DNA of 64,000 bases from Bacillota bacterium (GTDB lineage: Bacteria; Bacillota_I; Bacilli_A; RF39; UBA660), in contig SVAS01000001.1 of assembly GCA_015059285.1 (NCBI GenBank), forward strand, positions 68,217 to 132,216, written 5' to 3'. The notes below the pieces were generated by a model. The model did no database searches, had not been told where the DNA came from, and saw only the letters and a program-made list of their open reading frames with translations. Both the position numbers and the translations under genes were made by a program. This document shows, in pieces, positions 2,877-63,748 of the stretch. Each line of letters starts with the position of its first letter. Position 1 is the stretch's first letter.

Positions 2877-4292
2877 ATGAATAAGACTAAAATAATCGCA
2901 ACCATAGGTCCAGCTAGTAGTGATAAGAATATTTTGAAGAAAATGATACAAACTGGTATAGATGTTGTACGTATTAATTTAAAGCATACTAATTATAACT
3001 TTTGTAAAGATATAATTAAAAAAATAAATGAATTAAATGCTGAATTAAAAACTAGTGTAGCTGTTATGTTAGATACAAAAGGACCTGAAGTTAGAATAGG
3101 AAAATTTGCAAGCGGACATGCTTATTTAAAAAAAGATTCTAAAATTAGAGTTTATATGGAAGAATTAGTAGGTGATAGTACTAAATTTTCTGTTAATTAT
3201 TCTGGTCTTATTAATGATGTTAAATATGATACTATTTTAAAATTAGATGATGGTTTAATAGAATTAAAAGTTTTAGATAAAGGTGATGGATATTTATTAT
3301 GTCAAGTTTTAAACGATGGCATGATTAGCGACAACAAAGGAATGAACATTCCAGACATTCATTTAAATATTCCTTTTTTATCAGACAAAGATAGAGAAGA
3401 TATTAAATTTGCTTGTAAAAATAATGTTGACTTTTTAGCGCTTTCTTTTGTAGAGAATGCTGAAGATATATTAGAAGTTAACGATTTACTAATTGGTCAT
3501 GGTAATGATCATATAGGAATAATTGCTAAAGTAGAAAACAGTAGAGCTTTAGATGATATTGATGAAATTATTAGAGTTAGTGAAGGTGTAATGGTAGCTA
3601 GAGGGGATTTAGGAGTAGAACTTCCACTTGAACGAGTTCCAGGTATTCAAAAGGCTATTATTAATAAGTGTCATTTAGCTGGAAAAGTTAGTGTAGTCGC
3701 AACTGAGATGTTATCATCTATGGAAAATGTTGTAAGACCAACTAGAGCAGAAGTATCTGATGTTGCTAATGCAGTACTTGATGGTGCTGATGCTGTTATG
3801 TTAAGTGGTGAAACTACAATTGGTAAATATCCAATTGAAACATTAGAAACAATGGAAAGAATAATTAGAGCTGCTGAGGTAGATATAGATTATTTAGATT
3901 TATTAGAAAAAATGATTAAAGTTGAAAAGCAAGATGTTACAGGAATTCTTTCTTATAACGTAGCGGAAACGGCAACTAGACTTAATTGTAAAGCTATTAT
4001 AACTCCAACAGTAAGTGGTTATACTGCTAGAAAAATTAGTAGATTTAGACCAAAATGTCCAATTATTGCCTCAACTCCTAATTATGAAACCGCAAAATCA
4101 TTAATGCTTCATTTTGGGGTTTATCCAATAATTATAAGTGAACTTAAAAACTTTGATAAAATAATTGATCATTCAAGAAAAATTACTAGTGATTTACTTG
4201 ATATTAATAAAGGAGATAAAATCATTATTACAGGTGGTTATCCTTTTAAAGAAGTAAAACATACTAATTTTATGGAAATAGAAGAATTATAA
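2877..4292 (+). CDS. pyk: pyruvate kinase
   Basis: IIATIGPAS..., MLDTKGPEVR, full PK barrel and C-terminal domain (471 aa, lacks PEP-utiliser extension). Confidence 0.9.
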   Translation: MNKTKIIATIGPASSDKNILKKMIQTGIDVVRINLKHTNYNFCKDIIKKINELNAELKTSVAVMLDTKGPEVRIGKFASGHAYLKKDSKIRVYMEELVGDSTKFSVNYSGLINDVKYDTILKLDDGLIELKVLDKGDGYLLCQVLNDGMISDNKGMNIPDIHLNIPFLSDKDREDIKFACKNNVDFLALSFVENAEDILEVNDLLIGHGNDHIGIIAKVENSRALDDIDEIIRVSEGVMVARGDLGVELPLERVPGIQKAIINKCHLAGKVSVVATEMLSSMENVVRPTRAEVSDVANAVLDGADAVMLSGETTIGKYPIETLETMERIIRAAEVDIDYLDLLEKMIKVEKQDVTGILSYNVAETATRLNCKAIITPTVSGYTARKISRFRPKCPIIASTPNYETAKSLMLHFGVYPIIISELKNFDKIIDHSRKITSDLLDINKGDKIIITGGYPFKEVKHTNFMEIEEL

Positions 4293-4319
4293 AAGAATAA
4301 AAGAAAAGGGGTGAAGCTT

Positions 4320-6731
4320 ATGTACAATTTAGGTGAACAATTTAAGTTTGATTATGAAAAAGCTAAACCAAATAAAGATTGTGTTTTTCAAGGAAATAAA
4401 TATCGTATAACAGTTTTAACGGAAAGGTTAGTAAGACTAGAATATGATGAAAATGGTTTTTTTGAAGATAGACCAACAGAGTTAGTTTGGTATCGTAATT
4501 TACCTAAACCAGAGTTTAAAGTAAATGAAGATAATCGCTTTTTAGAAATTACTACTAAATACTTTACTCTGACGTATGCTAAAGGGAAAAACTTTTATGG
4601 TGGAAAAGCTAATCCTACAGGGTATTTAAAAATATCAGTAAATAATTCTGATCGTTATTGGTATTATAAACATCCTGAAGTTAGAAATTATGGTTCACCA
4701 TCTTTAACTTTAAGTGAAAATGGGAAAGTCAAATATCATAAAAGTTTATACTCTATAGATGGTTTTACTAGTATTGATGATAGCATGAGTAAAATTATGA
4801 CGCAGACTGGAGAAATAGTTGAAAGAGATAATAAAGAAATAGATACTTATGTTTTTATTTATTTAAAAGATTTTTATGAGTGTTTACAAGATTATTTTAA
4901 GATTACAGGTTCGCCTGCGTTAATTCCTAGATATGCTTTAGGAAATTGGTGGAGTAGAAATAATACCTATAATGATAAGCAGTTATATGATTTAATAGAC
5001 CAATTTGAAAAAAAGAAAATACCTTTATCAGTTTTAATGCTAGATAAGGATTGGCATATTAGAAATTTTAAAGATAAAAAGAAATTAAAAACAGGGTTTA
5101 CATTTAATAAGGAATTATTTGCATCGCCTTATGAAATGATTTCTTATCTTCATTCAAAAGGCATTCGTTTAGGACTTAATGTAAATCCAACTGAAGGAAT
5201 TTATCCGACAGAAGAATTATATAAAATTATTAAAGAATATTTGAATGCTTTAGAAGATGGAGTTATTCCATATAATATTTATAATCCTAGATTTATTGAT
5301 GCTTATTTAAAAATATTAATACATCCTTTGGATGCCTTAGGAGTAGATTTCTTTTGGATTGACTATTTTGATAAAGCTAAATTGGAAGAGATATTTTTAC
5401 TTAAACATTATCATTTTTATGATATGATGCGTAATTATAAAAGAAGACCGATGGTATTTGGATATAATACTAATATAGGAGCGCATCGTTACCCAGTTTT
5501 ATATTCTGGTAAAACAATTGTTAGTTGGGACACATTAAAATTAATTCCACTTCATAATTTAAATGCTAGTAATAGTGGTGTTACTTGGTGGAGTCATGAT
5601 ATTGGTGGGTATTTTAAAGGGATTGAAGATAATGAACTTTATATTCGTTTTGTTCAATTAGGTGTATTTTCACCAATATTAAAATTTGGTGCAGATGTTG
5701 GAAAATATTATAAAAGAGAACCTTGGAGATGGAGTATTAAAACATATAGTATTGTAAAAGACTATTTAACACTTCGTCATCGTTTAATACCTTATATTTA
5801 TACAGAGGCTTATAAATATCATAAAGAGGGAAAACCTTTAATAGAACCTGTATATTATCGTTTCCCTGAAATGTATGATGATCCTCTTTATAAAAATGAA
5901 TATTATTTTGGAAGTCAGCTTTTTGTCTCACCAATTGTTAAACAAAAAGATTATGTTATGAATCGTGTTATTCATAAATTCTTTATGCCAGATGGTATGT
6001 GGTATGATATTGTAACAGGTAAAAAATTTCCTGGTGGAAGAAATTATGTATCTTTCTTTAAAGATCAAGATTATCCTGTGTTTGCTAGAAGTGGTGCTAT
6101 CATTCCGTATGGGGATAATGAAAATATTAATGATACAACCCCACCAAAAGACTTAGAAATTCAAATTTTCCCAGGTAGAAGTAATACATACCATTTGTAT
6201 GAAGACGATGGTTTAAGTGATTTATATAAAAAAGGTTATTATTTACTAACTTCAATTGATTATAATTATTTACCTAATAACTATACAGTAATTATAAGAG
6301 CAATTGAAGGAAAAAGTGGTATTGTACCAGAAAAGCGTAATTATAAAATTACTTTTAGAAATACAAAACGTGCTAATGATGTTATTGCTTATTTTAATAA
6401 TGATAAAATTGAATATAACGCGTATGTAAATGGTCCTGATTTTATTGTTGAACTTAAAAATGTACCAACTATTGGGCAAGTAACTTTAAATTGTAAGGGA
6501 AAAGATATTGAAATAGATGCTGTAAGAATAATTAATGAAGATATTGAAACTATTATAAGTGATTTACAAATAACAACAGAATTAAAAGAAAAATTAGATA
6601 AAATATTATTTAATGCAGAACTATCTATTAAGAAAAAAAGAATAGAAGTTAGAAAACTTAAAAATGTTGGTTTAGAAAGTAAATTCGTAAAATTATTCTT
6701 AAAATTACTTGAATATATTAACCAAGTGTAA
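4320..6731 (+). CDS. glycoside hydrolase family 31 (alpha-glucosidase/alpha-xylosidase-like)
   Basis: GH31 catalytic signatures (DFFWIDYF, WWSHDIGGY); ATG at 4320 preferred over GTG at 4311 because of RBS spacing. Confidence 0.8.
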   Translation: MYNLGEQFKFDYEKAKPNKDCVFQGNKYRITVLTERLVRLEYDENGFFEDRPTELVWYRNLPKPEFKVNEDNRFLEITTKYFTLTYAKGKNFYGGKANPTGYLKISVNNSDRYWYYKHPEVRNYGSPSLTLSENGKVKYHKSLYSIDGFTSIDDSMSKIMTQTGEIVERDNKEIDTYVFIYLKDFYECLQDYFKITGSPALIPRYALGNWWSRNNTYNDKQLYDLIDQFEKKKIPLSVLMLDKDWHIRNFKDKKKLKTGFTFNKELFASPYEMISYLHSKGIRLGLNVNPTEGIYPTEELYKIIKEYLNALEDGVIPYNIYNPRFIDAYLKILIHPLDALGVDFFWIDYFDKAKLEEIFLLKHYHFYDMMRNYKRRPMVFGYNTNIGAHRYPVLYSGKTIVSWDTLKLIPLHNLNASNSGVTWWSHDIGGYFKGIEDNELYIRFVQLGVFSPILKFGADVGKYYKREPWRWSIKTYSIVKDYLTLRHRLIPYIYTEAYKYHKEGKPLIEPVYYRFPEMYDDPLYKNEYYFGSQLFVSPIVKQKDYVMNRVIHKFFMPDGMWYDIVTGKKFPGGRNYVSFFKDQDYPVFARSGAIIPYGDNENINDTTPPKDLEIQIFPGRSNTYHLYEDDGLSDLYKKGYYLLTSIDYNYLPNNYTVIIRAIEGKSGIVPEKRNYKITFRNTKRANDVIAYFNNDKIEYNAYVNGPDFIVELKNVPTIGQVTLNCKGKDIEIDAVRIINEDIETIISDLQITTELKEKLDKILFNAELSIKKKRIEVRKLKNVGLESKFVKLFLKLLEYINQV

Positions 6732-6789
6732 TATAATAATAAATAATTATTTAAAAACGAAGAAAAAGAGTAGTAATAAGTAACTTTAT

Positions 6790-6948
6790 TTAAAGAGAGA
6801 AAGTGGTTGGTGAAAACTTTCATTAAAGTCTTATGAACTTGCTTTGGAGTTTGATCCGCTTGTAGCGTTAAAACATTTGAGTGCATAAGTATTATGAAAT
6901 AAGGTGGTACCACGGGTAAAACTCGTCCTTATACATAATACTTTTTTG
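6790..6948 (+). promoter_or_regulatory. T-box riboswitch leader (Leu specifier CUU) upstream of leuS
   Basis: Stem I start agagagaaagtggttggtgaaaac, T-box motif aaggtggtaccacgg at 6901-6915, downstream U-run; candidate specifier context gaaCUUg/gtCUUa. Confidence 0.8.
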
Positions 6949-6964
6949 TATTTAAGGAGGATTT

Positions 6965-7307: not shown

Positions 7308-10127
7308 ATGTTTAATCATAGTGAAATAGAAAAAAAATGGAGAGAATATTGGGAAGAACACAATACTTTTAAAACTGATGTATGGGACTTTTCTAAACCA
7401 AAGTTTTATGCATTAGATATGTTTCCATATCCATCAGGAGTAGGTTTACATGCAGGACATCCTGAAGGATATACCGCAACTGATATTGTGTCTCGTATGA
7501 AAAGAATGCAAGGATATAATGTACTTCACCCAATGGGATTTGACTCTTTTGGTCTTCCTGCTGAACAATATGCAATAAGCACTGGAAATCATCCAGATGG
7601 ATTTACTAACGATAATATTAAAACTTTTAAAGAACAATTAAAATTATTGGGTTTATCTTATGATTGGGATAAAGAAGTATCAACTTGTGATCCAAATTAT
7701 TATAAATGGACACAATGGATATTTAAAAGGTTATATGAAGATGGACTTGCTAAATACGTTGATATGCCTGTAAACTGGTGTGAAGAATTAGGAACTGTAC
7801 TTGCTAATGATGAAATCATTGATGGTAAAAGTGAAAGAGGAGGATATCCTGTTGTTCGTAAAAATATGAAACAATGGGTTATAGATATACCTAAATATGC
7901 TGAAAAACTATTAGATGGTTTAAATGAAATTGATTGGCCAGAATCAACTAAAGAAATGCAAAGAAATTGGATTGGTAAAAGTATAGGAGCACATGTTAAA
8001 TTTAAAGTAAAAGATACTGATAAATCATTTACAGTATTTACTACTAGATGTGATACTTTATTTGGTGCTACTTACTGTGTTTTATCACCAGAACATGAAC
8101 TTGTAGATTTAATTACAACTAGTGATAAAAAAGAAGAAGTAGATGCTTATAAAAAGGTATGTGCTACTAAATCAGAAATGGAAAGAACAGAGCTCAATAA
8201 AGAAAAAACAGGTGTATTTATAGGAGCATATGCTATTAATCCTGTTAATAATAAAGAAATTCCTATTTGGATTTCAGATTACGTTCTAGCAACCTATGGA
8301 ACAGGAGCTATTATGGCAGTTCCTGCTCATGATGAAAGAGACTATGAATTTGCTAAAAAATTTAATATTGATATTATTCAAGTATTAGAAGAAGTTACAG
8401 GAACTCCTCATGAAAACGAATCTACAAAAAATAGTATCGTAGCTATTTTATATGATGAAAAAAACAATAATTATTTAACAATCAATTGGGGTAATTTAGG
8501 TGGTAGATTATTTATTGGGGGAAGCATTAAAGAAGGTGAAACACCTTTAGAATGCGCTATTAGAGAAGTAAAAGAAGAAACAGGCTATGTAAATATAGAA
8601 TTATTACAAGAATTACCTAAAATTAATCATCATTATTATGCTTATAATAAAGATAAATATTTTAATATTGAAAGTACTGGTTTTGTTTTCAAATTAGTTA
8701 ATGATGAAAAAATAGAACAAAACTTAGATGAAGATGAAAAATTCACTGTAGAATGGGTTTCAGAAGAAACAGTAAATAAAGAAATTACTGAACAATTACA
8801 TAAAAAGACTTATGAATATTATTTAAATAATGGTGCTATGTGTGGAGATGGTATTCACATTAATTCTGACTTTTTAAATGGTTTAAATAAAGAAGATGCT
8901 ATAAATAAAATGACTGAGTGGCTAGAAGAAAATAAGTTTGGTAATAAACAAATAAATTATCGTTTAAGGGAATGGATTTTTGCCCGTCAAAGATATTGGG
9001 GAGAACCAATACCAGTAGTTCATTTTGAAGATGGAACAAGTGCATCCATAGACGATTCTGAATTACCTTTAGTACTTCCAGAATTAGAAGATTATAGTCC
9101 AAGTAAAAGTGGAGCATCTCCACTTGAAAAAGCAACTGATTGGGTAAATGTAGAAATAGATGGTAAAAAAGCAAAAAGAGAAACTAGTACAATGCCTGGT
9201 TCAGCGGGTTCTAGTTGGTATTTCTTAAGATATATTGACCCACATAATGAAAATGCAATAGCAGATAAAAAACTATTAGAACATTGGTTACCAGTAGATC
9301 TTTATGTAGGTGGACCAGAACATGCAGTAGGTCATTTACTTTATTCTAGAATGTGGAATAACTATTTATATGATATAGGAGTTGTTCCAGTAAAAGAACC
9401 ATTTAAAAAATTAGTACATCAAGGAATGATATTAGGTGAAAATGGAATTAAAATGGGTAAAAGATATCCAGAATTTGCTGTTAACCCTAATGACATTGTA
9501 AAAGAATATGGTGCTGATACATTAAGGCTTTATGAAATGTTTATGGGACCTTTAGAAGCTGATAAACCATGGAGTAAAAAAGGTGTTGAAGGAGCTAGAA
9601 GATTTTTGGATCGTATATATAGACTATATACAGAAGAAAATAAAATTCAAGAAACACAAAATACAAATTTAGAAAAAATCTACAATCAAACAGTTAAAAA
9701 AGTAACAGAAGATTATGAAACATTAAACTTTAATACAGCAATTAGTAGTATGATGATATTCGTAAATGCAGTTTATAAAGAAGACATATTCCCAAAAGAA
9801 TATGCAGAAGGATTTGTTAAATTATTAAATCCAGTAGCCCCTTACTTAGCTGAAGAATTATGGAACTTATTAGGTCATAATGATACAATTGCATACGAAT
9901 CTTGGCCTACTTATGATGAAACTAAAATTGTAGATGAAACTTATACTATGATTGTACAAGTTAATGGTAAAGTACGTGGAAAAATAGAAGTTTCTACTGA
10001 TACAACAAATGACCAAATGGAAGAACTTGCTAAAACAAATGAAAATGTTATTAAAAATATTGAGGGAAAAGAAATTGTTAAAGTAATTGTTGTTCCTAAA
10101 AAATTAGTTAATATTGTAGTAAAATAA
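7308..10127 (+). CDS. leuS: leucyl-tRNA synthetase with inserted Nudix hydrolase domain
   Basis: Aligns end to end with B. subtilis LeuRS ([12 protein letters not shown] motif, KMGKR KMSKS motif), but about 145 extra residues lie between FEFAKKF and [14 protein letters not shown] and contain the Nudix box [23 protein letters not shown]. Confidence 0.95.
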
Positions 10128-10230: not shown

Positions 10231-11307
10231 ATGAAGAGAAAAGGATTTACCTTAATTGAACTGTTAGCAGTAATAGTAATACTAGCAATTATAGCGCTTA
10301 TTGCAGTGCCAGTTATTATGAACATTATCAGCAGTGCAAGAAAGAGTGCATTTGAGGATACAGCATATGGATTAATAAGTGCAGGGGAAATGTACTATGC
10401 AAACAATATATTAAGTGGAGCCACTTCTGATGATGTAGAATTTACAATTACAAATGGAGAATTTGTAGGAGAAAACAAATTAGAAGTAAAAGGTTCATTA
10501 CCAGCAAGTGGGAAAGTAAAGGTTACAAAAGATGGAAAAGTTGCAATTGCTGTAAATAATGGAAATTATTGTATAACAAAAGCAACAAGTGAAAGCAAAA
10601 TACAAACAGAAGAACTTGCAGGAGAATGTACTTATAGAAAGGTATTAAATCCAATAGTCACATCAACTGAGGCATGTATTACAAATGTAAATGAAATATG
10701 TGGTGATGATGTAATAAAAGCAGGAATCGCTGTTCAAGTAAAAGTAAATGATAAAGAAGAAGCAAAAACATTCTATGTGGTAAAAGATAATGCTACAACA
10801 GGAACATTAACATTAATCATGGATAGAAACATAGATCAAACAACAGTAGCGTGGATAACAAAAGAGGAATATTTAAGTGCAGGGGGAACAGAAGCAGAAT
10901 GGAGTTATGATGCTTATGGTTTTGGCACAGAAGGAAACTCTAATAAAGGTCCAATCACAGCGTTAAATTATTTAGAAAGCAAAACAGCAAATTGGACAAA
11001 CATTCATACTAAAAATTATACAGTTTCTGATGAACACGGAAAGTATATAGTAGAAAGAACAAACGCAAGGGCAAGAATGCTTTCAAAAACAGAAACATTG
11101 AGTTTAGGTTGTGTAATGTATGATGCAGGATGTCCAGTTTGGTTATATAATGGAATTGGATACTGGTTAAGTACTTCTGATACAGATTTCCCTATAACTG
11201 ATGCTTTAAATATGCCTAGTAGTGGTTATGTATCTGGTCTACCAATCTATCGCGATGATTATAGAGGTGTACGCCCAGTAATAGAAATACCTAAAACTAT
11301 AATATAA
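10231..11307 (+). CDS. type IV pilin-like protein paralog 1 (358 aa): prepilin N-terminus plus conserved C-terminal domain
   Basis: MKRKGFTLIELLAVIVILAIIALIAVP class III signal (G/F cleavage site, Glu at +5); C-terminal motifs TLIMDRNI, GPITALNYLE, ARARML, CPVWLY, GVRPVIEI. Confidence 0.85.
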   Translation: MKRKGFTLIELLAVIVILAIIALIAVPVIMNIISSARKSAFEDTAYGLISAGEMYYANNILSGATSDDVEFTITNGEFVGENKLEVKGSLPASGKVKVTKDGKVAIAVNNGNYCITKATSESKIQTEELAGECTYRKVLNPIVTSTEACITNVNEICGDDVIKAGIAVQVKVNDKEEAKTFYVVKDNATTGTLTLIMDRNIDQTTVAWITKEEYLSAGGTEAEWSYDAYGFGTEGNSNKGPITALNYLESKTANWTNIHTKNYTVSDEHGKYIVERTNARARMLSKTETLSLGCVMYDAGCPVWLYNGIGYWLSTSDTDFPITDALNMPSSGYVSGLPIYRDDYRGVRPVIEIPKTII

Positions 11308-22813: not shown

Positions 22814-23029
22814 TATTATTACCTCCTCTCTATAAGAGATTTGGTAGACACCCAACAGTTAAATATTTCTAACAACATTATACCACTTGTCTATGTTCAA
22901 GTGAATTAAAATAGTTAATTATTTGTGAAAATATTAAAATACAAATTGGTATTTCAATATTTGTAAAATTGTGTTATAATATAAGCAGTTTAAAGGCAAA
23001 GACGAAGAAGTAGTAATAAAATTAATTAT

Positions 23030-23212
23030 TTAAAGAGAGTTAGTGGTTGGTGAAAACTAATAATAATATTTTATGAATTCATCTTCAGAGCTTTATATAC
23101 TAAATATATAACGGTAACGCGTTACAGTTTTAAGGCAAGTTGATAGACTTGTAAATTAAGGTGGTACCACGTAAACACGTCCTTATTGGATTGTGTTTTT
23201 TTTAATAATTAG
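23030..23212 (+). promoter_or_regulatory. T-box riboswitch leader (Phe specifier UUC) upstream of pheST
   Basis: agagagttagtggttggtgaaaac stem I start, gaaUUCa specifier context, T-box aaggtggtaccacg at 23158-23171, T-run; extended -10 TGTTATAAT at about 22968-22976. Confidence 0.8.
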
Positions 23213-26756: not shown

Positions 26757-27863
26757 ATGAAGAAAAAAGGTTTCACGTTAATTGAACTATTAGCAGTAAT
26801 AGTAATACTAGCAATAATAGCGCTTATAGCAGTACCAGTAATAATGAATATTATAAGTAGTGCAAGAAAGAGCTCGTTTGAGGATACTGCATATGGAATA
26901 ATTAGTGCCGGTGAATTATACTATGCTGAAAAGTTGCTTGAACCAAATGGAATGACTAGTGATGCAGAATTTACATTTACAAATGGAAGAGTTACTCCAA
27001 CAGGATTAAATGTAAAAGGTTCATTACCAAAAAGTGGTTCAATGGTAGTAACAAAAGAAGGAAAAATAGCAATCGCAATAACTAATGGAGAATTATGTAT
27101 AACAAAAGGATATGATGATAGCAAAATAGAAACATTAGAAGAATTTGAAAGTTGTGACTTACCAGCAAAAAAATTAAGTGAGCTTGTAAAAACAAATGAT
27201 TTTGCGGAAAGTGTAGATGCGTGTGCGACGAGCGGAACATGTTCATCAGGAACGCCATTTGCAATCGAAGTAGCCCCTGGAAATATTCAAAATTTCTATG
27301 TAATCAGTGATGTAAATAATGTAGTAACACTAATTATGGATAGAAACATTGGTAATACAGTGGCTTGGATTACTCAAGGTGATTATAATGACGATGATTC
27401 TTGGGAAGTTTGTTATGAAGAAGGTACTATAGAAGAGTGGTGTGAATATGGAAATAGTAATAAAGGACCAATAACAGCATTAAATTACTTAGAAATACAA
27501 ACATCAGGATGGACAAATATAGAGGCAAAGAATTACACATTAACAGATGATAATACAACACCAAAATACACAATTGAAAGAACAGGAGCTAGAGCAAGAA
27601 TGTTAACCAAAACAGAAGCGTTAGCAGTAGGATGTAGTGGATGGTATGACGGAGATGAAGCTACATGTCCAGACTGGTTATATGGTAATTTAGATGATAA
27701 TGCAGTTCCTTGGGGTTACTGGACAAGTTTTGCTGATGCGGACACTACTCACCTCGTTTGGTTTGTAGAAAATGATGGTTCTATGAACTTAACCGACCCG
27801 GAATATGGCTACTATGATGGCTACTACTATGGTGTGCGCCCAGTTATTGAAGTTTCAAAATAA
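26757..27863 (+). CDS. type IV pilin-like protein paralog 2 (368 aa)
   Basis: MKKKGFTLIELLAVIVILAIIALIAVP; C-terminal motifs TLIMDRNIGNTVAW, NSNKGPITALNYLE, GARARMLTKTE, CPDWLYGNL, YGVRPVIEVSK. Confidence 0.85.
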   Translation: MKKKGFTLIELLAVIVILAIIALIAVPVIMNIISSARKSSFEDTAYGIISAGELYYAEKLLEPNGMTSDAEFTFTNGRVTPTGLNVKGSLPKSGSMVVTKEGKIAIAITNGELCITKGYDDSKIETLEEFESCDLPAKKLSELVKTNDFAESVDACATSGTCSSGTPFAIEVAPGNIQNFYVISDVNNVVTLIMDRNIGNTVAWITQGDYNDDDSWEVCYEEGTIEEWCEYGNSNKGPITALNYLEIQTSGWTNIEAKNYTLTDDNTTPKYTIERTGARARMLTKTEALAVGCSGWYDGDEATCPDWLYGNLDDNAVPWGYWTSFADADTTHLVWFVENDGSMNLTDPEYGYYDGYYYGVRPVIEVSK

Positions 27864-36259: not shown

Positions 36260-36294
36260 AACAGATGATAGAGACGATATACAAATTAGTCTTG

Positions 36295-36462
36295 CTAGAG
36301 AGTTAGTGGTTGGTGGAAACTAATGAAGAAGGTTGTATATAGATCACTCTAGATGTTTCTAATATAGAACGGTGACGCGTTATAGTTTTGAGTGTATAAT
36401 TTTTATAAAATAAGGTGGTACCGCGGGTAAAACTCGTCCTTAATTGGATGAGTTTTTTTGTT
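36295..36462 (+). promoter_or_regulatory. T-box riboswitch leader (Ile specifier AUC) upstream of ileS
   Basis: agagagttagtggttggtggaaac stem I start, tagAUCa specifier context, T-box aaggtggtaccgcgg, terminator actcgtcc/ggatgagt plus U7. Confidence 0.85.
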
Positions 36463-36493
36463 TTAAAAATATAATTATAATAGGAGGGTTAAT

Positions 36494-49336: not shown

Positions 49337-49371
49337 AGCGATGAAGAAAGAAAGTAGAATAATTTGTTTTT

Positions 49372-49530
49372 AAAGAGAGTTAGTGGTTGGTGGAAACTAA
49401 TAAATAAATTATTTGAAAGCTACTTTCTGAGTATAGTAAAAACTATCGGAAAAATCCGTTATCAAAATTAAGAACAAATTAGGATGGTACCACGGTTTTT
49501 TCGTTCCTAGAAAATAACCGTGGTTTTTTT
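49372..49530 (+). promoter_or_regulatory. T-box riboswitch leader (Ala specifier GCU) upstream of the dNMP-kinase-like/cmk/alaS operon
   Basis: agagagttagtggttggtggaaac, gaaaGCUa specifier context at 49429-49431, T-box ggatggtaccacgg, terminator ccacggtt...aaccgtgg plus U7. Confidence 0.85.
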
Positions 49531-52519: not shown

Positions 52520-52640
52520 GATTTATGTTATAGAAACCACTTTAATTATAGTTTTATGTATAATAAAAATGTCAACGATAGCAAAATAAAACATAATGTT
52601 ATTGACAACAAAATATTTATGTTATAAAATTATTTTAGAA
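52520..52640 (+). promoter_or_regulatory. conserved dual promoter and long leader of pilin-like paralog 3
   Basis: extended -10 TGTATAAT at 52557-52564; TTGACA-16-TATAAA at 52602-52629; repeated tTATGTTATA motifs; about 85% identical to the region upstream of paralog 4. Confidence 0.6.
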
Positions 52641-52718
52641 CAATATGTTATACAAGGTAAATAAATGTATAAAAGGATAAAAGGTTGTTCAAAATAAGAA
52701 AGAAGGAGTGGAAAGAAA

Positions 52719-53711
52719 ATGAGACAAAACAAAAAAGGATTTACTTTAATTGAATTACTAGCAGTAATAGTGATACTAGCAATAATAGCACTAATAGCAG
52801 TACCAGTTATAATGAATATAATAAGTAGTGCAAGAGAAAGTGCATTTAAAGATACTGCTTATGGACTTGTGAAAGCTGGAGAGTTATACTACGCAAATCA
52901 ATTACTGACAACAGGTGGGATGATAGAAGATAAAGTTTTTACTTTTGATGATGGAAATGTTGAACCAACAGGTTTAGATATCAAAGGAAATTTGCCAACA
53001 ACTGGTTCAATGACAATTACCAAAGATGGAAGTGTGATTTTAAACGTTTCAGATGGTCAATTTCTTGCAACTAAAAACGAGCATCAAACTGATGTTGTTG
53101 TTATAAAAGGGAATGTTAGCAAACCTATTCCAAATTCAAATATAATCTCAGACAATAAGTGTGCAGTAGATGAAACTCAAATCTGTGCGGAAGGTACTTT
53201 AATAACTTACAAAGTAAATGATAGTCAAACTTATGACTTTTATGTAATAAAAGATACAGGTAGATTATTAACTTTGATTATGAATAGTAATTTAGGATTA
53301 AATGATGTTTCTTGGAATACTTCTGGTTTTGCTAGTGATGGTCCTACTGGGGTACTGAAAGCTTTAGAAGAACGCACGAATAATTGGACAAATGTAAATA
53401 TAATTTCTGAATATACTTATGTAGATACAAATGGAAATAACCAATATTCAGCCTTTACTAAAACTAATGTTAGATCTAGATTATTATCAAGTACAGAATA
53501 TGATATCAGTAAAACTTGGTTAACTTCAAATTTAGTAAATTATGATGCTTGTGGCTGGACTGAAAATGACGCTTGTGGTTATTGGACTGGAGAATCTATT
53601 TCTAATACTCCTGAAGGTTTTGGTTTATGCCTTACTTCTTATGGACCATATACATGTTCTGGAATGTATGGTATACGTCCAGTAATTGAAGTATCTAAAT
53701 TAGCAAATTAA
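52719..53711 (+). CDS. type IV pilin-like protein paralog 3 (330 aa)
   Basis: MRQNKKGFTLIELLAVIVILAIIALIAVP; C-terminal TLIMNSNLG, WTNVNI, CGYWTG, YGIRPVIEVSK. Confidence 0.85.
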   Translation: MRQNKKGFTLIELLAVIVILAIIALIAVPVIMNIISSARESAFKDTAYGLVKAGELYYANQLLTTGGMIEDKVFTFDDGNVEPTGLDIKGNLPTTGSMTITKDGSVILNVSDGQFLATKNEHQTDVVVIKGNVSKPIPNSNIISDNKCAVDETQICAEGTLITYKVNDSQTYDFYVIKDTGRLLTLIMNSNLGLNDVSWNTSGFASDGPTGVLKALEERTNNWTNVNIISEYTYVDTNGNNQYSAFTKTNVRSRLLSSTEYDISKTWLTSNLVNYDACGWTENDACGYWTGESISNTPEGFGLCLTSYGPYTCSGMYGIRPVIEVSKLAN

Positions 53712-62346: not shown

Positions 62347-62372
62347 AGGATGATTAAATTCATCCTTTTATT
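62345..62372 (+). terminator. terminator after the carboxypeptidase gene
   Basis: aaaggatgattaaattcatcctttt hairpin. Confidence 0.65.
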
Positions 62373-62377
62373 TATGT

Positions 62378-62500
62378 TATAGAAACCACTTCAAATAAAG
62401 TTTATGTATAATAAATATGTCAATGATAGTAAAGTAAAACAATATATTATTGACACCGAAATGTTTATGTTATAAAATTAATCTAGAACAATATGTTATA
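62378..62500 (+). promoter_or_regulatory. conserved dual promoter and long leader of pilin-like paralog 4
   Basis: about 85% identical to the region upstream of paralog 3, including TGTATAAT, TTGACA...TATAAA and repeated TTATGTTATA motifs. Confidence 0.6.
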
Positions 62501-62565
62501 CAAACTAAACAAATGCATAAAAGAATAAAAAGTTGTTCAAGATAAGAAAGAAGGAGTGGAATAGT

Positions 62566-63621
62566 ATGAAGAAAAAAGGATTTACATTAATAGAATTACT
62601 AGCAGTGATAGTAATACTAGCAATAATAGCATTAATAGCAGTACCAGTTATAATGAATATCATAAGTAGTGCAAGAGAAAGTGCATTTGAAGATACTGCA
62701 TATGGACTTATTGATGCAGGAGAGATGTATTATGCAAGTTCATTATTAGAAAATGGAATGACTAGTGATGTAGAGTTCACAATTGAAGATGGAAAGTTTG
62801 TAGGAGAAAACAAACTAGAAGTAAAAGGAGCACTTCCAACAAATGGAAAAATAACAGTAACAAAAGATGGAAAAGTTGCTATTGCTGTAAATAATGGAGC
62901 ACATTGCGTAACAAAAGCAACAAGCGAAAGTGCAATCACAACAGTTAAATATGAAGGAAGTTGTGAATATAAAAAAGCAGCAAATCCAATCATCACATCA
63001 ACTGAGGCATGTATCACAAATGCAAACGAAACATGTAGTGAAGACGCAATAAAAGCAGGAATTGCAGTAAATGTTAAAGTAAACGAAAAAGAAGAAGCAA
63101 AAACATTCTATGTAGTAAAAGACGATGCTACAACTAACACATTAACATTAATCATGGATAGAAATATTGGAGAAACAGTAGCTTGGATTAGTGAAAAAGA
63201 CTATGGATGTGGAGAAGCCGGAGATTATTGTTCAACAAACGAAAAAGGGCCACTAACAGCCTTAACTTACTTAGAAAGTAAAACAAGTAGTTGGACAAAC
63301 ATCCCAGCAAAAACATATACATTAGCAGACGATCAAGGACAATACACAATAGAAAGAACAAATGCAAGAGCTCGAATGTTAACACATGATGAAGCAATAG
63401 ATTTGTTAGGATGTGTAGAAAATGACACAGGATGTCCAGCATGGTTGTATGGGAATTTAGGAACTAGTAACCCACCATTTGGCTTCTGGCTAAGCTCTGC
63501 TCCTGCGGACGATGCTTACTTCGCTTGGTTCGTGGGCAGCGGCGGTGGCGTTGACGACGGCGTCATCACTGGCTTCTCCGGTGTGCGCCCAGTTATCGAA
63601 ATCTCAAAATCTATCATCTAG
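62566..63621 (+). CDS. type IV pilin-like protein paralog 4 (351 aa)
   Basis: MKKKGFTLIELLAVIVILAIIALIAVP; about 65% identical to paralog 1; C-terminal SGVRPVIEISKSII; ATG at 62566 with GGAGTGG RBS. Confidence 0.85.
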   Translation: MKKKGFTLIELLAVIVILAIIALIAVPVIMNIISSARESAFEDTAYGLIDAGEMYYASSLLENGMTSDVEFTIEDGKFVGENKLEVKGALPTNGKITVTKDGKVAIAVNNGAHCVTKATSESAITTVKYEGSCEYKKAANPIITSTEACITNANETCSEDAIKAGIAVNVKVNEKEEAKTFYVVKDDATTNTLTLIMDRNIGETVAWISEKDYGCGEAGDYCSTNEKGPLTALTYLESKTSSWTNIPAKTYTLADDQGQYTIERTNARARMLTHDEAIDLLGCVENDTGCPAWLYGNLGTSNPPFGFWLSSAPADDAYFAWFVGSGGGVDDGVITGFSGVRPVIEISKSII

Positions 63622-63715
63622 ACTTAAGTATTTGTAGTAATGTAATACGAAGTTAGAAATAAGGTTTTGAAAAGAATGATAATAAGAGCACGTATGTAAG
63701 CATTCTCTGATTTCT

Positions 63716-63748
63716 TGATAAAAAATACGCTTCGCGTATTTTTTTTGC
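63716..63748. terminator. bidirectional rho-independent terminator
   Basis: aaaaaatacgcttcgcgtatttttttt. Confidence 0.75.

Follow-up and report, generated by a model that had tools for sequence, protein, structure and literature searches.

A GC-rich, adenine-poor 3' end of a type IV pilin-like gene as the probable variable region of a DGR target

Introduction

Why does a type IV pilin-like gene of an AT-rich genome end in a short and sharply GC-rich patch? The gene, called paralog 4 here, lies in a 64-kb stretch of DNA from a Bacillota bacterium (the window, by which we mean the whole stretch that was analysed), whose assembly (GCA_015059285.1) carries the protein MBE6144073.1. A preliminary description of the window had proposed that the patch was recently imported or converted, or that unusual selection acted on nucleic-acid structure at this site, unless the assembly was chimeric. 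In diversity-generating retroelements (DGRs), a reverse transcriptase (RT) copies an A-rich template RNA whose variable sites are mostly AAC codons and whose scaffold codons lack adenine. The DGR RT misincorporates opposite adenines, and the cDNA then replaces the variable region (VR) of a target gene. We consider, with a probability of about 0.7, that the patch is the VR of a DGR target gene, and the paralog family is best explained as a further member of this known kind of system.

Results

Recounting confirmed the GC-rich patch at the 3' end of paralog 4, and the contrast is even larger than first described: positions 63481-63600 hold 74 G+C in 120 nt (61.7% GC), against 26.4% for the 64-kb window, which had been put at 28%. 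The string that had been quoted as 123 nt with about 75 G+C is actually the 113-nt stretch 63482-63594 with 71 G+C (62.8%), so its length and count were wrong while its percentage was right. The sliding-window analysis proposed there placed the patch at the highest GC peak of the 64 kb (z = 6.8 for 113-nt windows; mean 0.264, sd 0.054), the next-highest value elsewhere being 0.47. The maximal-scoring GC segment is 63481-63590 (64.5% GC), and in 120-nt windows the second peak is 27722-27841, at the 3' end of paralog 2. Moreover, the patch is the adenine minimum of the window (9.7-11.7% versus a mean of about 40%).

The patch forms the final ~110 nt of the gene (62566-63621), covers amino acids 306-345 of 351, is in frame and encodes conserved motifs of the pilin-like family. 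Its GC3 is 0.60-0.80, compared with about 0.15 across the remainder of the gene. Codons ending in C make up 21/37 in the patch and 4.8% in the window's ORFs, whereas only one codon in the patch ends in A, versus 43% in the ORFs. The overall tally is 21 NNC, 12 NNT, 5 NNG and 1 NNA. Because NNC is enriched, NNT is kept and NNA has nearly gone, this pattern reflects adenine avoidance, not GC-rich codon usage. The terminal motif is spelled ggtgtgcgcccagttat at 63580 in paralog 4 and at 27831 in paralog 2, ggtgtacgcccagtaat at 11266 in paralog 1 and ggtatacgtccagtaat at 53670 in paralog 3; these spellings, GC-rich in paralogs 4 and 2 and different in paralogs 1 and 3, are as previously stated.

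Paralog 4 (62566..63621, + strand) encodes a 351-aa type IV pilin-like protein that begins with a prepilin N-terminus and, beyond a middle region, ends in a DUF6273/DUF1566-like domain of lectin type. The N-terminus scores 32.2 bits for PF07963 (cutoff 21.2) and 33.6 bits for TIGR02532 (cutoff 16.3), and it combines the prepilin GFxxxE motif and a hydrophobic helix; all paralogs share the motif KGFTLIELLAVIVILAIIALIAVPV without change. By these sequence features, the family belongs among type IV pilin-like proteins (prepilin-type N-terminal cleavage/methylation). Upstream, a promoter-like site, TTGACA-17-TAAAAT (62450..62478, + strand; 11/12 consensus matches), sits in a ~195-nt region conserved between paralogs (repeat family D5), and paralogs 4 and 5 are 88-92% identical from 62371.

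With regard to the C-terminal domain, an AlphaFold2 model (pLDDT 77, pTM 0.74) was compared with a viral structure library, where the best matches were DUF6273 and DUF1566 phage proteins (probability 0.99-1.0, TM 0.39-0.54, E 2e-3 to 1e-2). The top list from the PDB consisted almost entirely of C-type lectins, but with E > 0.1. The model thus suggests, with moderate confidence, a DUF6273/DUF1566 C-type-lectin-like fold. The Pfam profiles DUF6273 (PF19789) and Lcl_C, equivalent to DUF1566 (PF07603), gave no match to paralog 4 even at E <= 10. A phage homolog (P0025) scores 26.5 for Pfam DUF6273, above the cutoff of 23.5, and has a marginal match to Lcl_C (E = 8e-4). PF19789 or PF07603 also stands in the precomputed annotation of many short homologs, and the NCBI name of paralog 5 is 'DUF1566 domain-containing protein'. 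The model predicts a beta-hairpin at the patch (residues 125-150; strands 131-136 and 140-145). The candidate VR therefore lies at the 3' end of the target gene and inside a C-type-lectin-type ligand-binding domain.

The cassette consists of a variable core between two constant segments. The 5' constant flank, ggc ttc tgg cta agc tct gct (63481..63501, + strand), is relatively GC-rich and is common to paralogs 0, 5 and 7 and to the ortholog L005 with few synonymous or near-synonymous differences. In the variable core, PADDAYFAWFVGSGGGVDDGVITGFS (63502..63579, + strand; aa 313-338), NNC-rich variable codons alternate with the fixed scaffold codons gcg, gct, gct tgg, gtg, ggt, gtt and gtc. The 3' constant segment, ggt gtg cgc cca gtt atc gaa atc tca aaa tct atc atc tag (63580..63621, + strand), opens with the GC-rich 13-mer GGTGTGCGCCCAG directly 3' of the core and, judged by position, may be IMH-like. 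It is 100% identical in the ortholog L005 and differs by two bases in paralog 7. Its first 15-17 nt are identical also in paralog 2, the phage L008 and the distant homolog L004, and the 13-mer itself is nucleotide-identical in paralogs 2, 4 and 7, L005, L008 and L004. GC-rich constant segments thus flank the mutable core on both sides, as in DGR targets. A conserved non-coding 3' extension of about 100 nt (63622..63718, + strand; ~90% identity) follows only in the GC-richest copies (paralogs 4, 7 and 0, and L005). It shows no covariation and ends in a weak AT-rich hairpin ~80-100 nt past the stop codon. The terminator-type hairpin behind it, aaaaaatacgc ttc gcgtatttttttt (63720..63747, + strand), was recognised from sequence, is present in the computed fold and has a homologous hairpin after paralog 0. 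No GC-rich inverted repeat was found directly downstream of the 3' constant segment; such a repeat is a common, not a universal, trait of DGRs.

At least eight paralogs, each a full gene with its own promoter, form a graded series in which the GC content of the corresponding 3' block falls from 0.63 to 0.36. Paralog 2 (26757-27863, + strand; block 27714..27845) has a block GC of 0.45, 13/42 NNC codons and the same ggtgtgcgcccagtt 3' segment, and its block appears to be a partly decayed equivalent of that of paralog 4. The block is near background in paralog 1 (10231..11307, + strand; GC 0.38, 5/39 NNC) and at background in paralog 3 (52719..53711, + strand; GC 0.36, 1/34 NNC). The series is read as recently refreshed copies and copies that are no longer refreshed and drift back to AT-richness. 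The signature, NNC-rich and A-poor with a different sequence each time, occurs in at least four paralogs besides paralog 4. Paralog blocks also differ from one another at some third codon positions and at some sites without A, so that not all the paralogs can derive from a single template by pure A-to-N copying. Gene conversion is visible between paralogs 4 and 5 in their N-terminal halves.

The ortholog L005 comes from a diverged strain, with coding flanks ~92% identical to those of paralog 4 and a nearly identical downstream flank. Inside the block, 29.6% of sites differ between the two, distributed 10/13/1 over codon positions 1/2/3, and there are also two 3-nt indels; outside the block, 8.0% of sites differ, distributed 9/8/18 (p = 5e-7 for rate, 1.3e-4 for position bias). 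Similarly, the phages L008 and L009 are identical over 2434 nt save six changes within 14 nt of the block, which adjoin the 3' constant segment and are all at codon positions 1-2 (3/3/0). The block of the host gene L005 and that of the phage L008 differ by 6/8/0 in codon position. An A-poor GC island is present in all seven distinct phage homolog genes, in genomes of 25-31% GC. Across five GC-rich blocks, the invariant columns contain 3 A in 49, versus 31% A in the variable columns, and family-wide entropy peaks in the block (3.12 versus 2.26 bits). Judged from these sequences, variation seems to be limited to the cassette and to codon positions 1-2 on A-poor scaffold bases, as would be the case for the VR of a DGR target.

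The paralog 4 block is identical in three fetched contigs (L001-L003) and in all three cluster variants, and JGI, ENA and NCBI assemblies together have 16 contigs that encode the exact protein, which excludes the chimera considered earlier. Because the block is the same everywhere it is seen, no ongoing hypervariation is visible at paralog 4, though many of the samples may share a source. Different blocks are found in strain-level relatives or orthologs (L005, P0030, P0150).

When the variable columns of the five GC-rich blocks are set to A, an AAC-rich template is obtained. This inferred template resembles a real AAC-rich unit in a relative of 24% GC (L032:10001-10153), which has the same gtgcgcccagtt end. 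By hand comparison the L032 unit has about 11 non-A mismatches to paralog 7, and it is therefore a homolog and not the template of this organism; no + strand promoter was detected for it. In addition, the consensus AWNVNN.GNVNNNNVNN.NNGVRP is common to 27 Asn-rich ORFs of template type from elsewhere. All eight fixed columns of this consensus are conserved in the pilin-like family blocks, and its 13 Asn columns are the variable ones (4.3 versus 1.4 residues).

No RT was found in 484 kb, comprising the window, ~20 kb of flanking sequence, the start of the paralog 7 contig and the phage loci, by tblastn with a confirmed DGR RT, a motif scan and Pfam tables of neighbouring genes; nor was a template repeat found in the same 484 kb. 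Within the window, blastn (word 7) and a repeat search returned the paralogs only. There was no RT within ~10 kb in seven distinct phage contexts (nine gene tables including host flanks) or in the neighbourhood of the template-type ORF P0041. The viral collection gave no template matching the 49-kb phage, degenerate template-tolerant patterns had no match in viral contigs, nor in genome and metagenome collections that lack even paralog 4 itself, and scaffold-only scans of the viral contigs recovered phage VRs and no template. One hit, L023, was set aside as a chance match in a phage of 63% GC. When the AAC-run core of the template-type sequences was scanned against viral contigs, one scan was empty and the other gave the positive-control cassettes L037 and L038. 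The phage L037 has a canonical cassette with a confirmed RT (RVT_1, 1.3e-21) and only A-to-N mismatches in the aligned core; its VR is 42% GC and 19% A, versus 32% GC and 35% A in its template. GenBank phages gave no DNA or protein match, and the search for related loci gave 0 relatives in the genome collection and 1 in the metagenome collection, neither of which holds this lineage.

Discussion

The compositional signature of the patch, the kind of domain, the cassette-restricted change at codon positions 1-2 in orthologs and near-identical phages, and the fit to real templates support the view that the patch is a DGR variable region. The target would be a type IV pilin-like surface protein with a mutable core of ~80 nt in its C-type-lectin-like domain, between two constant segments. 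Adenine-mutagenic copying would leave NNC at ligand-contacting positions, adenine-free codons in the scaffold and very little A in total, and such a lack of A amounts to a GC island in an AT-rich genome. The RT and the template would exist, or would recently have existed, elsewhere in the genome and act in trans on several paralogs.

Within this reading it is possible, though on the whole doubtful, that the cassette was written by a DGR that the lineage has since lost and that the patch is now a stable coding segment not yet drifted to AT, a special case of the DGR reading and not an addition to it. The identical block in every copy of paralog 4 seen, the 484 kb with neither RT nor template and the paralogs grading towards background composition agree with such a relic, and published phages retain DUF6273 targets after loss of the DGR (bioRxiv 10.1101/2024.10.15.618418). 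On the other hand, a GC content of 64% where the genome has 26% implies that the block was written very recently or is still being refreshed, the strain-level orthologs L005, P0030 and P0150 carry different blocks, and two otherwise identical phages differ in the block only. More speculative, and unlikely in our estimate, is an extended scheme in which one DGR remote from all its targets acts in trans on eight or more dispersed chromosomal genes for type IV pilin-like adhesins and on the DUF6273 gene of the same host's phage, with host and phage recognition proteins rewritten from one template. That template would perhaps be free-standing and remote from the RT, as the L032 unit suggests, and the ~100-nt 3' extension would mark targets that are still competent.

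Among the alternatives to a DGR, recombination deserves the most attention. Neisseria pilE/pilS and the R64 shufflon (PilV C-terminal switching) vary by recombination via silent cassettes or a site-specific recombinase, and they resemble our case in having a variable C-terminal part, with conserved flanks, in a type IV pilin or pilin-like adhesin. Cassettes might likewise be exchanged across the conserved flanks, without reverse transcription, between paralogs, phage copies or silent cassettes, together with diversifying selection on binding loops. The at least eight paralogs with conserved flanking segments, the conversion between paralogs 4 and 5, the scaffold common to a phage copy and the lack of RT or template in the 484 kb would suit this explanation, but we consider it improbable, since no variant block among those compared is a copy or mosaic of another. 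Moreover, exchange among AT-rich paralogs would leave unexplained why the blocks are NNC-rich and A-poor, why A is confined to variable columns and why these columns are the Asn columns of real templates. The pilE/pilS and shufflon mechanisms would not yield an adenine-specific NNC signature either, and around the blocks we saw neither promoterless or silent cassettes nor a recombinase nor inverted repeats. For this reason, and for want of donor copies, we rejected models of the shufflon and silent-cassette kind. The earlier idea of a converted segment came close, but templated adenine-mutagenic replacement, namely a DGR variable region, fits better than ordinary gene conversion.

The idea of a recent import, in which homologous DNA of a GC-rich organism replaced the 3' end, has in its favour the sharp compositional boundary and the synonymous GC shift even at conserved residues (gtg cgc cca gtt atc versus gtt cgt cca gta ata). 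It is nevertheless very improbable: the codons avoid adenine, with NNC and NNT, few NNG and almost no NNA, unlike the codons of a genome with 60-65% GC, and the island recurs in several paralogs and in 7/7 phage homolog genes of 25-31% GC genomes, its sequence differing from case to case. GenBank phages and the viral scan yielded no similar DNA, and neither did the genome and metagenome scans, whose collections are without this lineage. Structured RNAs are often GC islands in AT-rich genomes, so that an RNA gene or structure embedded in the ORF might be imagined; yet the segment is in frame and encodes conserved motifs of the family, its RNA folds no more stably than shuffled sequences do (z = -1.28), and it has no Rfam or tRNA matches. 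The proposed selection on nucleic-acid structure finds no support in these results. Together with a chimeric assembly, against which stand the identical protein in independent assemblies and the identical DNA in the contigs fetched, this explanation can be practically neglected.

The DGR reading places the family near known systems. In DGR targets of DUF6273 type, the VR maps to the DUF6273 C-terminus (PMC11792537; bioRxiv 10.1101/2024.10.15.618418), and this domain has a C-type-lectin-like fold (PMC10743442). Such targets are known in gut Firmicutes phages, including Faecalibacterium prophages, 'tentaclin'/target-2 proteins and Toutatisvirus; a single template can supply two or more targets, the distance between template and target can exceed 17 kb, and targets also persist where a DGR is absent (PMC11792537, PMC10743442, bioRxiv 10.1101/2024.10.15.618418). 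Our family shares with them the C-type-lectin-like kind of domain, a VR at the extreme C-terminus, a block ending in ...GVRP and NNC-type variable codons. It differs from them in the type IV prepilin N-terminus to which the domain is joined, in its presence as at least eight dispersed chromosomal paralogs with their own promoters, and in that no RT, Avd or template was found near the paralogs. A survey of DGRs described the DUF1566 target class, together with constant flanks rich in GC, AAC codons, indels of 3n length and targets remote from the element, including the CLec2-class targets (DUF1566/DUF823/Fib_succ_major, Legionella LdtA type) and multi-target DGRs with remote targets, such as that of Treponema denticola with seven targets (PMC5758913). 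These are similar to our case in the C-terminal VR in a DUF1566-like domain, the GC-rich flanks on both sides, the AAC-derived codons, the 3n indels next to AAC runs and the several remote targets per element, although here the link to one RT and template is inferred and LdtA is a lipoprotein whereas paralog 4 is a pilin-like protein. Moreover, Bacteroides Type V pili are reported to have DGR-diversified pilus adhesins (bioRxiv 10.1101/2024.11.15.621889). There, too, the adhesive part of a pilus is what the DGR acts on, but the pilus system here is type IV-like, in another phylum and another domain context.

Finally, where the genome is AT-rich, a sharp GC-rich, A-poor and NNC-rich island at the 3' end of a lectin-type domain can reveal a DGR target far from its retroelement. 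Standard DGR finders start from the RT and the template, and remote or orphan targets would therefore be missed. The paralog series may record when each copy was last rewritten. If the scaffold common to host and phage reflects one template, the retroelement would edit both sides of the phage-host interface. The finding points to programmed diversification of type IV pilin-like protein tips in an uncultured spore-forming gut Firmicute.

Composition of the 3' end of paralog 4

Paralog 4 (62566-63621, + strand) encodes a 351-aa pilin-like protein with a prepilin-type N-terminus (PF07963, TIGR02532), and a strong promoter-like site lies upstream of it at 62450-62478. On recounting, 74 of the 120 nt at 63481-63600 were G or C (61.7%, against 26.4% for the window), with the maximal GC segment at 63481-63590 (64.5%). 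The preliminary description gave the percentage of its quoted string correctly but not its size, which is 113 nt (63482-63594) with 71 G+C and not 123 nt with about 75; the codon spellings that it stated for paralogs 1-4 were correct on re-reading. At the length of that string, the patch reached z = 6.8 among same-length windows, the next peak being 0.47, and with 120-nt windows the second GC peak was the 3' end of paralog 2 (27722-27841). The adenine minimum of the window was also at the patch (9.7% vs 40%), where GC3 climbed from ~0.15 to 0.60-0.80. Written out in codons, the patch runs ggc ttc tgg cta agc tct gct in its 5' part, cct gcg gac gat gct tac ttc gct tgg ttc gtg ggc agc ggc ggt ggc gtt gac gac ggc gtc atc act ggc ttc tcc in its middle part and ggt gtg cgc cca gtt atc gaa atc tca aaa tct atc atc tag in its 3' part. 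NNC codons account for 21/37 in the patch vs 4.8% in the long ORFs of the window; the remaining patch codons are 12 NNT, 5 NNG and 1 NNA, while NNA makes up 43% in those ORFs.

This codon usage is adenine avoidance combined with C-ending codons and is unlike that of a GC-rich donor, so that the suggested import of the segment, taken as coming from such a genome, is very unlikely. The chance that the patch is an assembly artefact or an RNA element is negligible. The worry about a chimera was unfounded, since 16 contigs of JGI, ENA and NCBI assemblies carried the exact 351-aa protein, and the three that were fetched agreed at every base of the patch. The patch is in frame and codes for motifs common to all paralogs (GxW.S ... 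GVRPVIE). Rfam and ARAGORN gave no match to a structured RNA or tRNA gene in it, and its RNA fold was no better than shuffled sequence (z = -1.28), which speaks against the proposed selection on nucleic-acid structure.

The C-terminal domain of paralog 4 itself had no Pfam match. Its AlphaFold2 model (15-sequence alignment, pLDDT 77) best matched gut-phage DUF6273 and DUF1566 proteins (probability 0.99-1.0, TM 0.39-0.54), and the top list of the PDB ranking was almost all C-type lectins, none of them significant. A phage homolog (P0025) passes DUF6273, and paralog 5 is named a DUF1566 protein by NCBI. The patch corresponds to model residues 125-150, a predicted beta-hairpin; in published DUF6273 targets of diversity-generating retroelements (DGRs), the variable region (VR) sits at the equivalent place (PMC10743442, PMC11792537).

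Variation in the block and its fit to templates

An ortholog of paralog 4 in a diverged strain (L005) has a nearly identical downstream flank. Inside 63499-63579, 29.6% of sites differ between the two (codon positions 10/13/1), compared with 8.0% outside the block (9/8/18; Fisher p = 5e-7 for rate and 1.3e-4 for position bias), and two 3-nt indels separate the two sequences. Among five equal-length GC-rich blocks, A accounted for 3/49 in invariant columns vs 31% in variable columns, and writing A at the variable columns gave '... aac aac gaa ggt aac gta aac aac aac aac gaa aac aat gac aac aac tac ggt gtg cgc cca'. Homolog representatives at E <= 1e-30 numbered 106, some matching part of the protein only, and dozens of the best matched the pilin plus domain architecture end to end. 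Over 71 representative full-length homologs, the mean entropy of aa 313-338 was 3.12 bits vs 2.26 elsewhere in the C-terminal domain, being 3.2-3.9 bits at Asn-template positions and low at most scaffold positions except for a variable tryptophan column (2.8 bits); the GVRPVI that comes next was nearly invariant.

Many Asn-rich ORFs that are plainly template repeats came out of a protein search with a short profile, and 27 could be aligned to the consensus A-W-N-V-N-N-x-G-N-V-N-N-N-N-V-N-N-x-N-N-G-V-R-P. Across eight block variants in the pilin-like family, every one of the 8 fixed template columns was conserved (1.4 residues per column), the majority residue being that of the template in 8/8, and the 13 Asn template columns were the variable block columns (4.3 residues per column). 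A relative at 24% GC carries an AAC-rich template-type unit (L032:10001-10153), 'gct tgg gtt gtc ttc aac aac ggc aga gtt aac aac aac aac gtt aat aac aac aac tac ggc gtg cgc cca gtt atg ...', which spans the block and the 3' constant segment only, not a whole gene, and stands alone between tex and bacA. Published templates normally adjoin a reverse transcriptase (RT); none was found within 10 kb of this unit. The unit was rejected as the template of the present organism, with about 11 non-A mismatches to paralog 7 by hand comparison.

As a positive control, a canonical cassette was drawn from the viral collection (phage contigs L037/L038), with a target VR at 913-1018, a 209-aa ORF, a template at 1730-1835 and an RT (RVT_1, E = 1.3e-21). 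Every mismatch in the aligned core is A-to-N, and the VR has 42% GC and 19% A vs 32% GC and 35% A in the template, indicating that adenine mutagenesis alone creates an island of raised GC and lowered A in an AT-rich genome. L038 has two RT-like ORFs of ~29% mutual identity (reverse-complement coordinates 4180-5250 and 8392-9489), which may be two retroelements in one phage.

Paralogs and phage homologs

Eight or more paralogs exist in this organism: besides the four of the window, L001 adds two downstream of it and L019 one upstream, and a further copy sits at the start of a contig from the same samples (L035). Block GC was 0.63, 0.58, 0.56, 0.47, 0.45, 0.44, 0.38 and 0.36 in paralogs 4, 7, 0, 6, 2, 5, 1 and 3, respectively, and GC outside the block was 0.31-0.37 in each gene. 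Past the stop codon, paralogs 4, 7 and 0 and the ortholog of paralog 4 share a non-coding stretch of about 100 nt (window 63622-63718, L035:357-453, L019:5776-5873 and L005:530-625), with ~90% conservation and no covariation detected. This extension is absent from paralogs 1, 2, 3, 5 and 6, its carriers being exactly the copies with the GC-richest blocks. The gradient and the extension suggest that some copies may still be, or recently were, competent targets and that others are decaying.

The paralog 4 block was invariant in all copies seen. Variation among members of the paralog 4 protein cluster lay in the N-terminal half and mirrored paralog 5, indicating gene conversion between the two genes (window 62566-63100 vs L001:16180-16715); one variant (P0003) has paralog 5 residues at 2, 38, 66, 103, 147, 148, 153, 159 and 174 and keeps a paralog 4-type 3' block. 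Between paralogs, identity is 88-92% over the promoter and 5' leader, a stretch of ~160-195 nt (window 62371-62565, 52553-52713 and in front of the other copies), so each paralog is a self-contained promoter-gene unit, and these units are dispersed among housekeeping genes (leuS, pheT, tig, greA). Paralog 0 has two small prepilin-type N_methyl genes beside it (139 and 132 aa; L019:6015-6859, some 3.5 kb ahead of the window), whose products may belong to the same apparatus as minor pilins. On the upstream side of paralog 0, synteny varies by sample, with a tRNA-synthetase gene (tRNA-synt_1) in L019 and spo0A in L020. Repeated leader-like elements (agagagttagtggttggtg.aaactaat ... ggtggtaccgcgg) at window 6769-6955, 23009-23077, 36284-36466 and 49349-49417, near the aminoacyl-tRNA synthetase genes leuS and pheT and two other sites, resemble T-box leaders by eye. 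leuS (window 7308-10127) has a NUDIX-domain insertion in the precomputed Pfam table for L019.

Seven distinct phage genes have the same domain in genomes of 25-31% GC. Every block has 47-63% GC with about one NNA codon, differs in sequence and ends in g[gt]n gtg cgc cca gt[ct] or a close variant. Two phage contigs from two metagenomes also holding the host (L008, L009) are identical across 2434 nt but for six changes in 14 nt of the block, all at codon positions 1-2 and abutting the 3' constant segment. The blocks of L005 and L008 share all third positions (differences 6/8/0), and their genes have no DNA similarity upstream of 'gct tgg'. A ~40-nt stretch (aaatctttgattt..gagggcaagcttgtcttgtc) is common to the downstream flanks of host paralog 7 (L035:430-476) and the phage DUF6273 gene (L008:1450-1497), which suggests that this phage infects the host; the stretch could be an attachment site or a host-phage recombination scar. 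A separate GC-rich block is present in each of the two DUF6273 genes of one temperate phage (L029:2128-2586, 5263-5607; L030:3233-3793), which lie in the early region beside ERF and SSB; no RT was found within the contig. For the second gene, the calls in two sibling samples were 114 aa and 186 aa long, with identical 3' halves.

Discussion

We consider, with a probability of about 0.7, that the patch is a DGR VR of the DUF6273/DUF1566 lectin class in a pilin-like protein; it would be written at the 3' end of the gene from an AAC-rich template located elsewhere. The "converted segment" of the preliminary description comes close to this, the patch having probably been rewritten, here read as adenine-mutagenic copying from a template and not as ordinary gene conversion. 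Recombinational exchange of cassettes is an improbable alternative, because it leaves both the adenine-specific signature and the fit to templates unexplained. As for the DGR, a search of 484 kb, made up of the window with the ~20 kb flanking it, the start of the paralog 7 contig and the phage loci, found neither an RT (tblastn with the L037 RT) nor this organism's template; the sole match to the RT query, a weak one in leuS, was spurious. No template matching the 49-kb phage was found in the viral collection, and there was no GC-rich inverted repeat just past the 3' constant segment. There are published precedents for targets at a distance, for one template serving several of them, for 3n indels and for targets outliving their DGR (PMC5758913; bioRxiv 10.1101/2024.10.15.618418). 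A pure relic of a lost DGR, which the patch may be, is a sub-case of the DGR reading.

DGR targets of pilin type have been noted in surveys (PMC6642488, PMC11661182), and DUF1566/DUF6273 targets are already well described. What is unusual here is that the putative targets are type IV pilin-like genes dispersed as a family of eight paralogs, that host genes have a block scaffold in common with a phage gene for which no template of its own was found, and that a template-type unit is free-standing in a relative.
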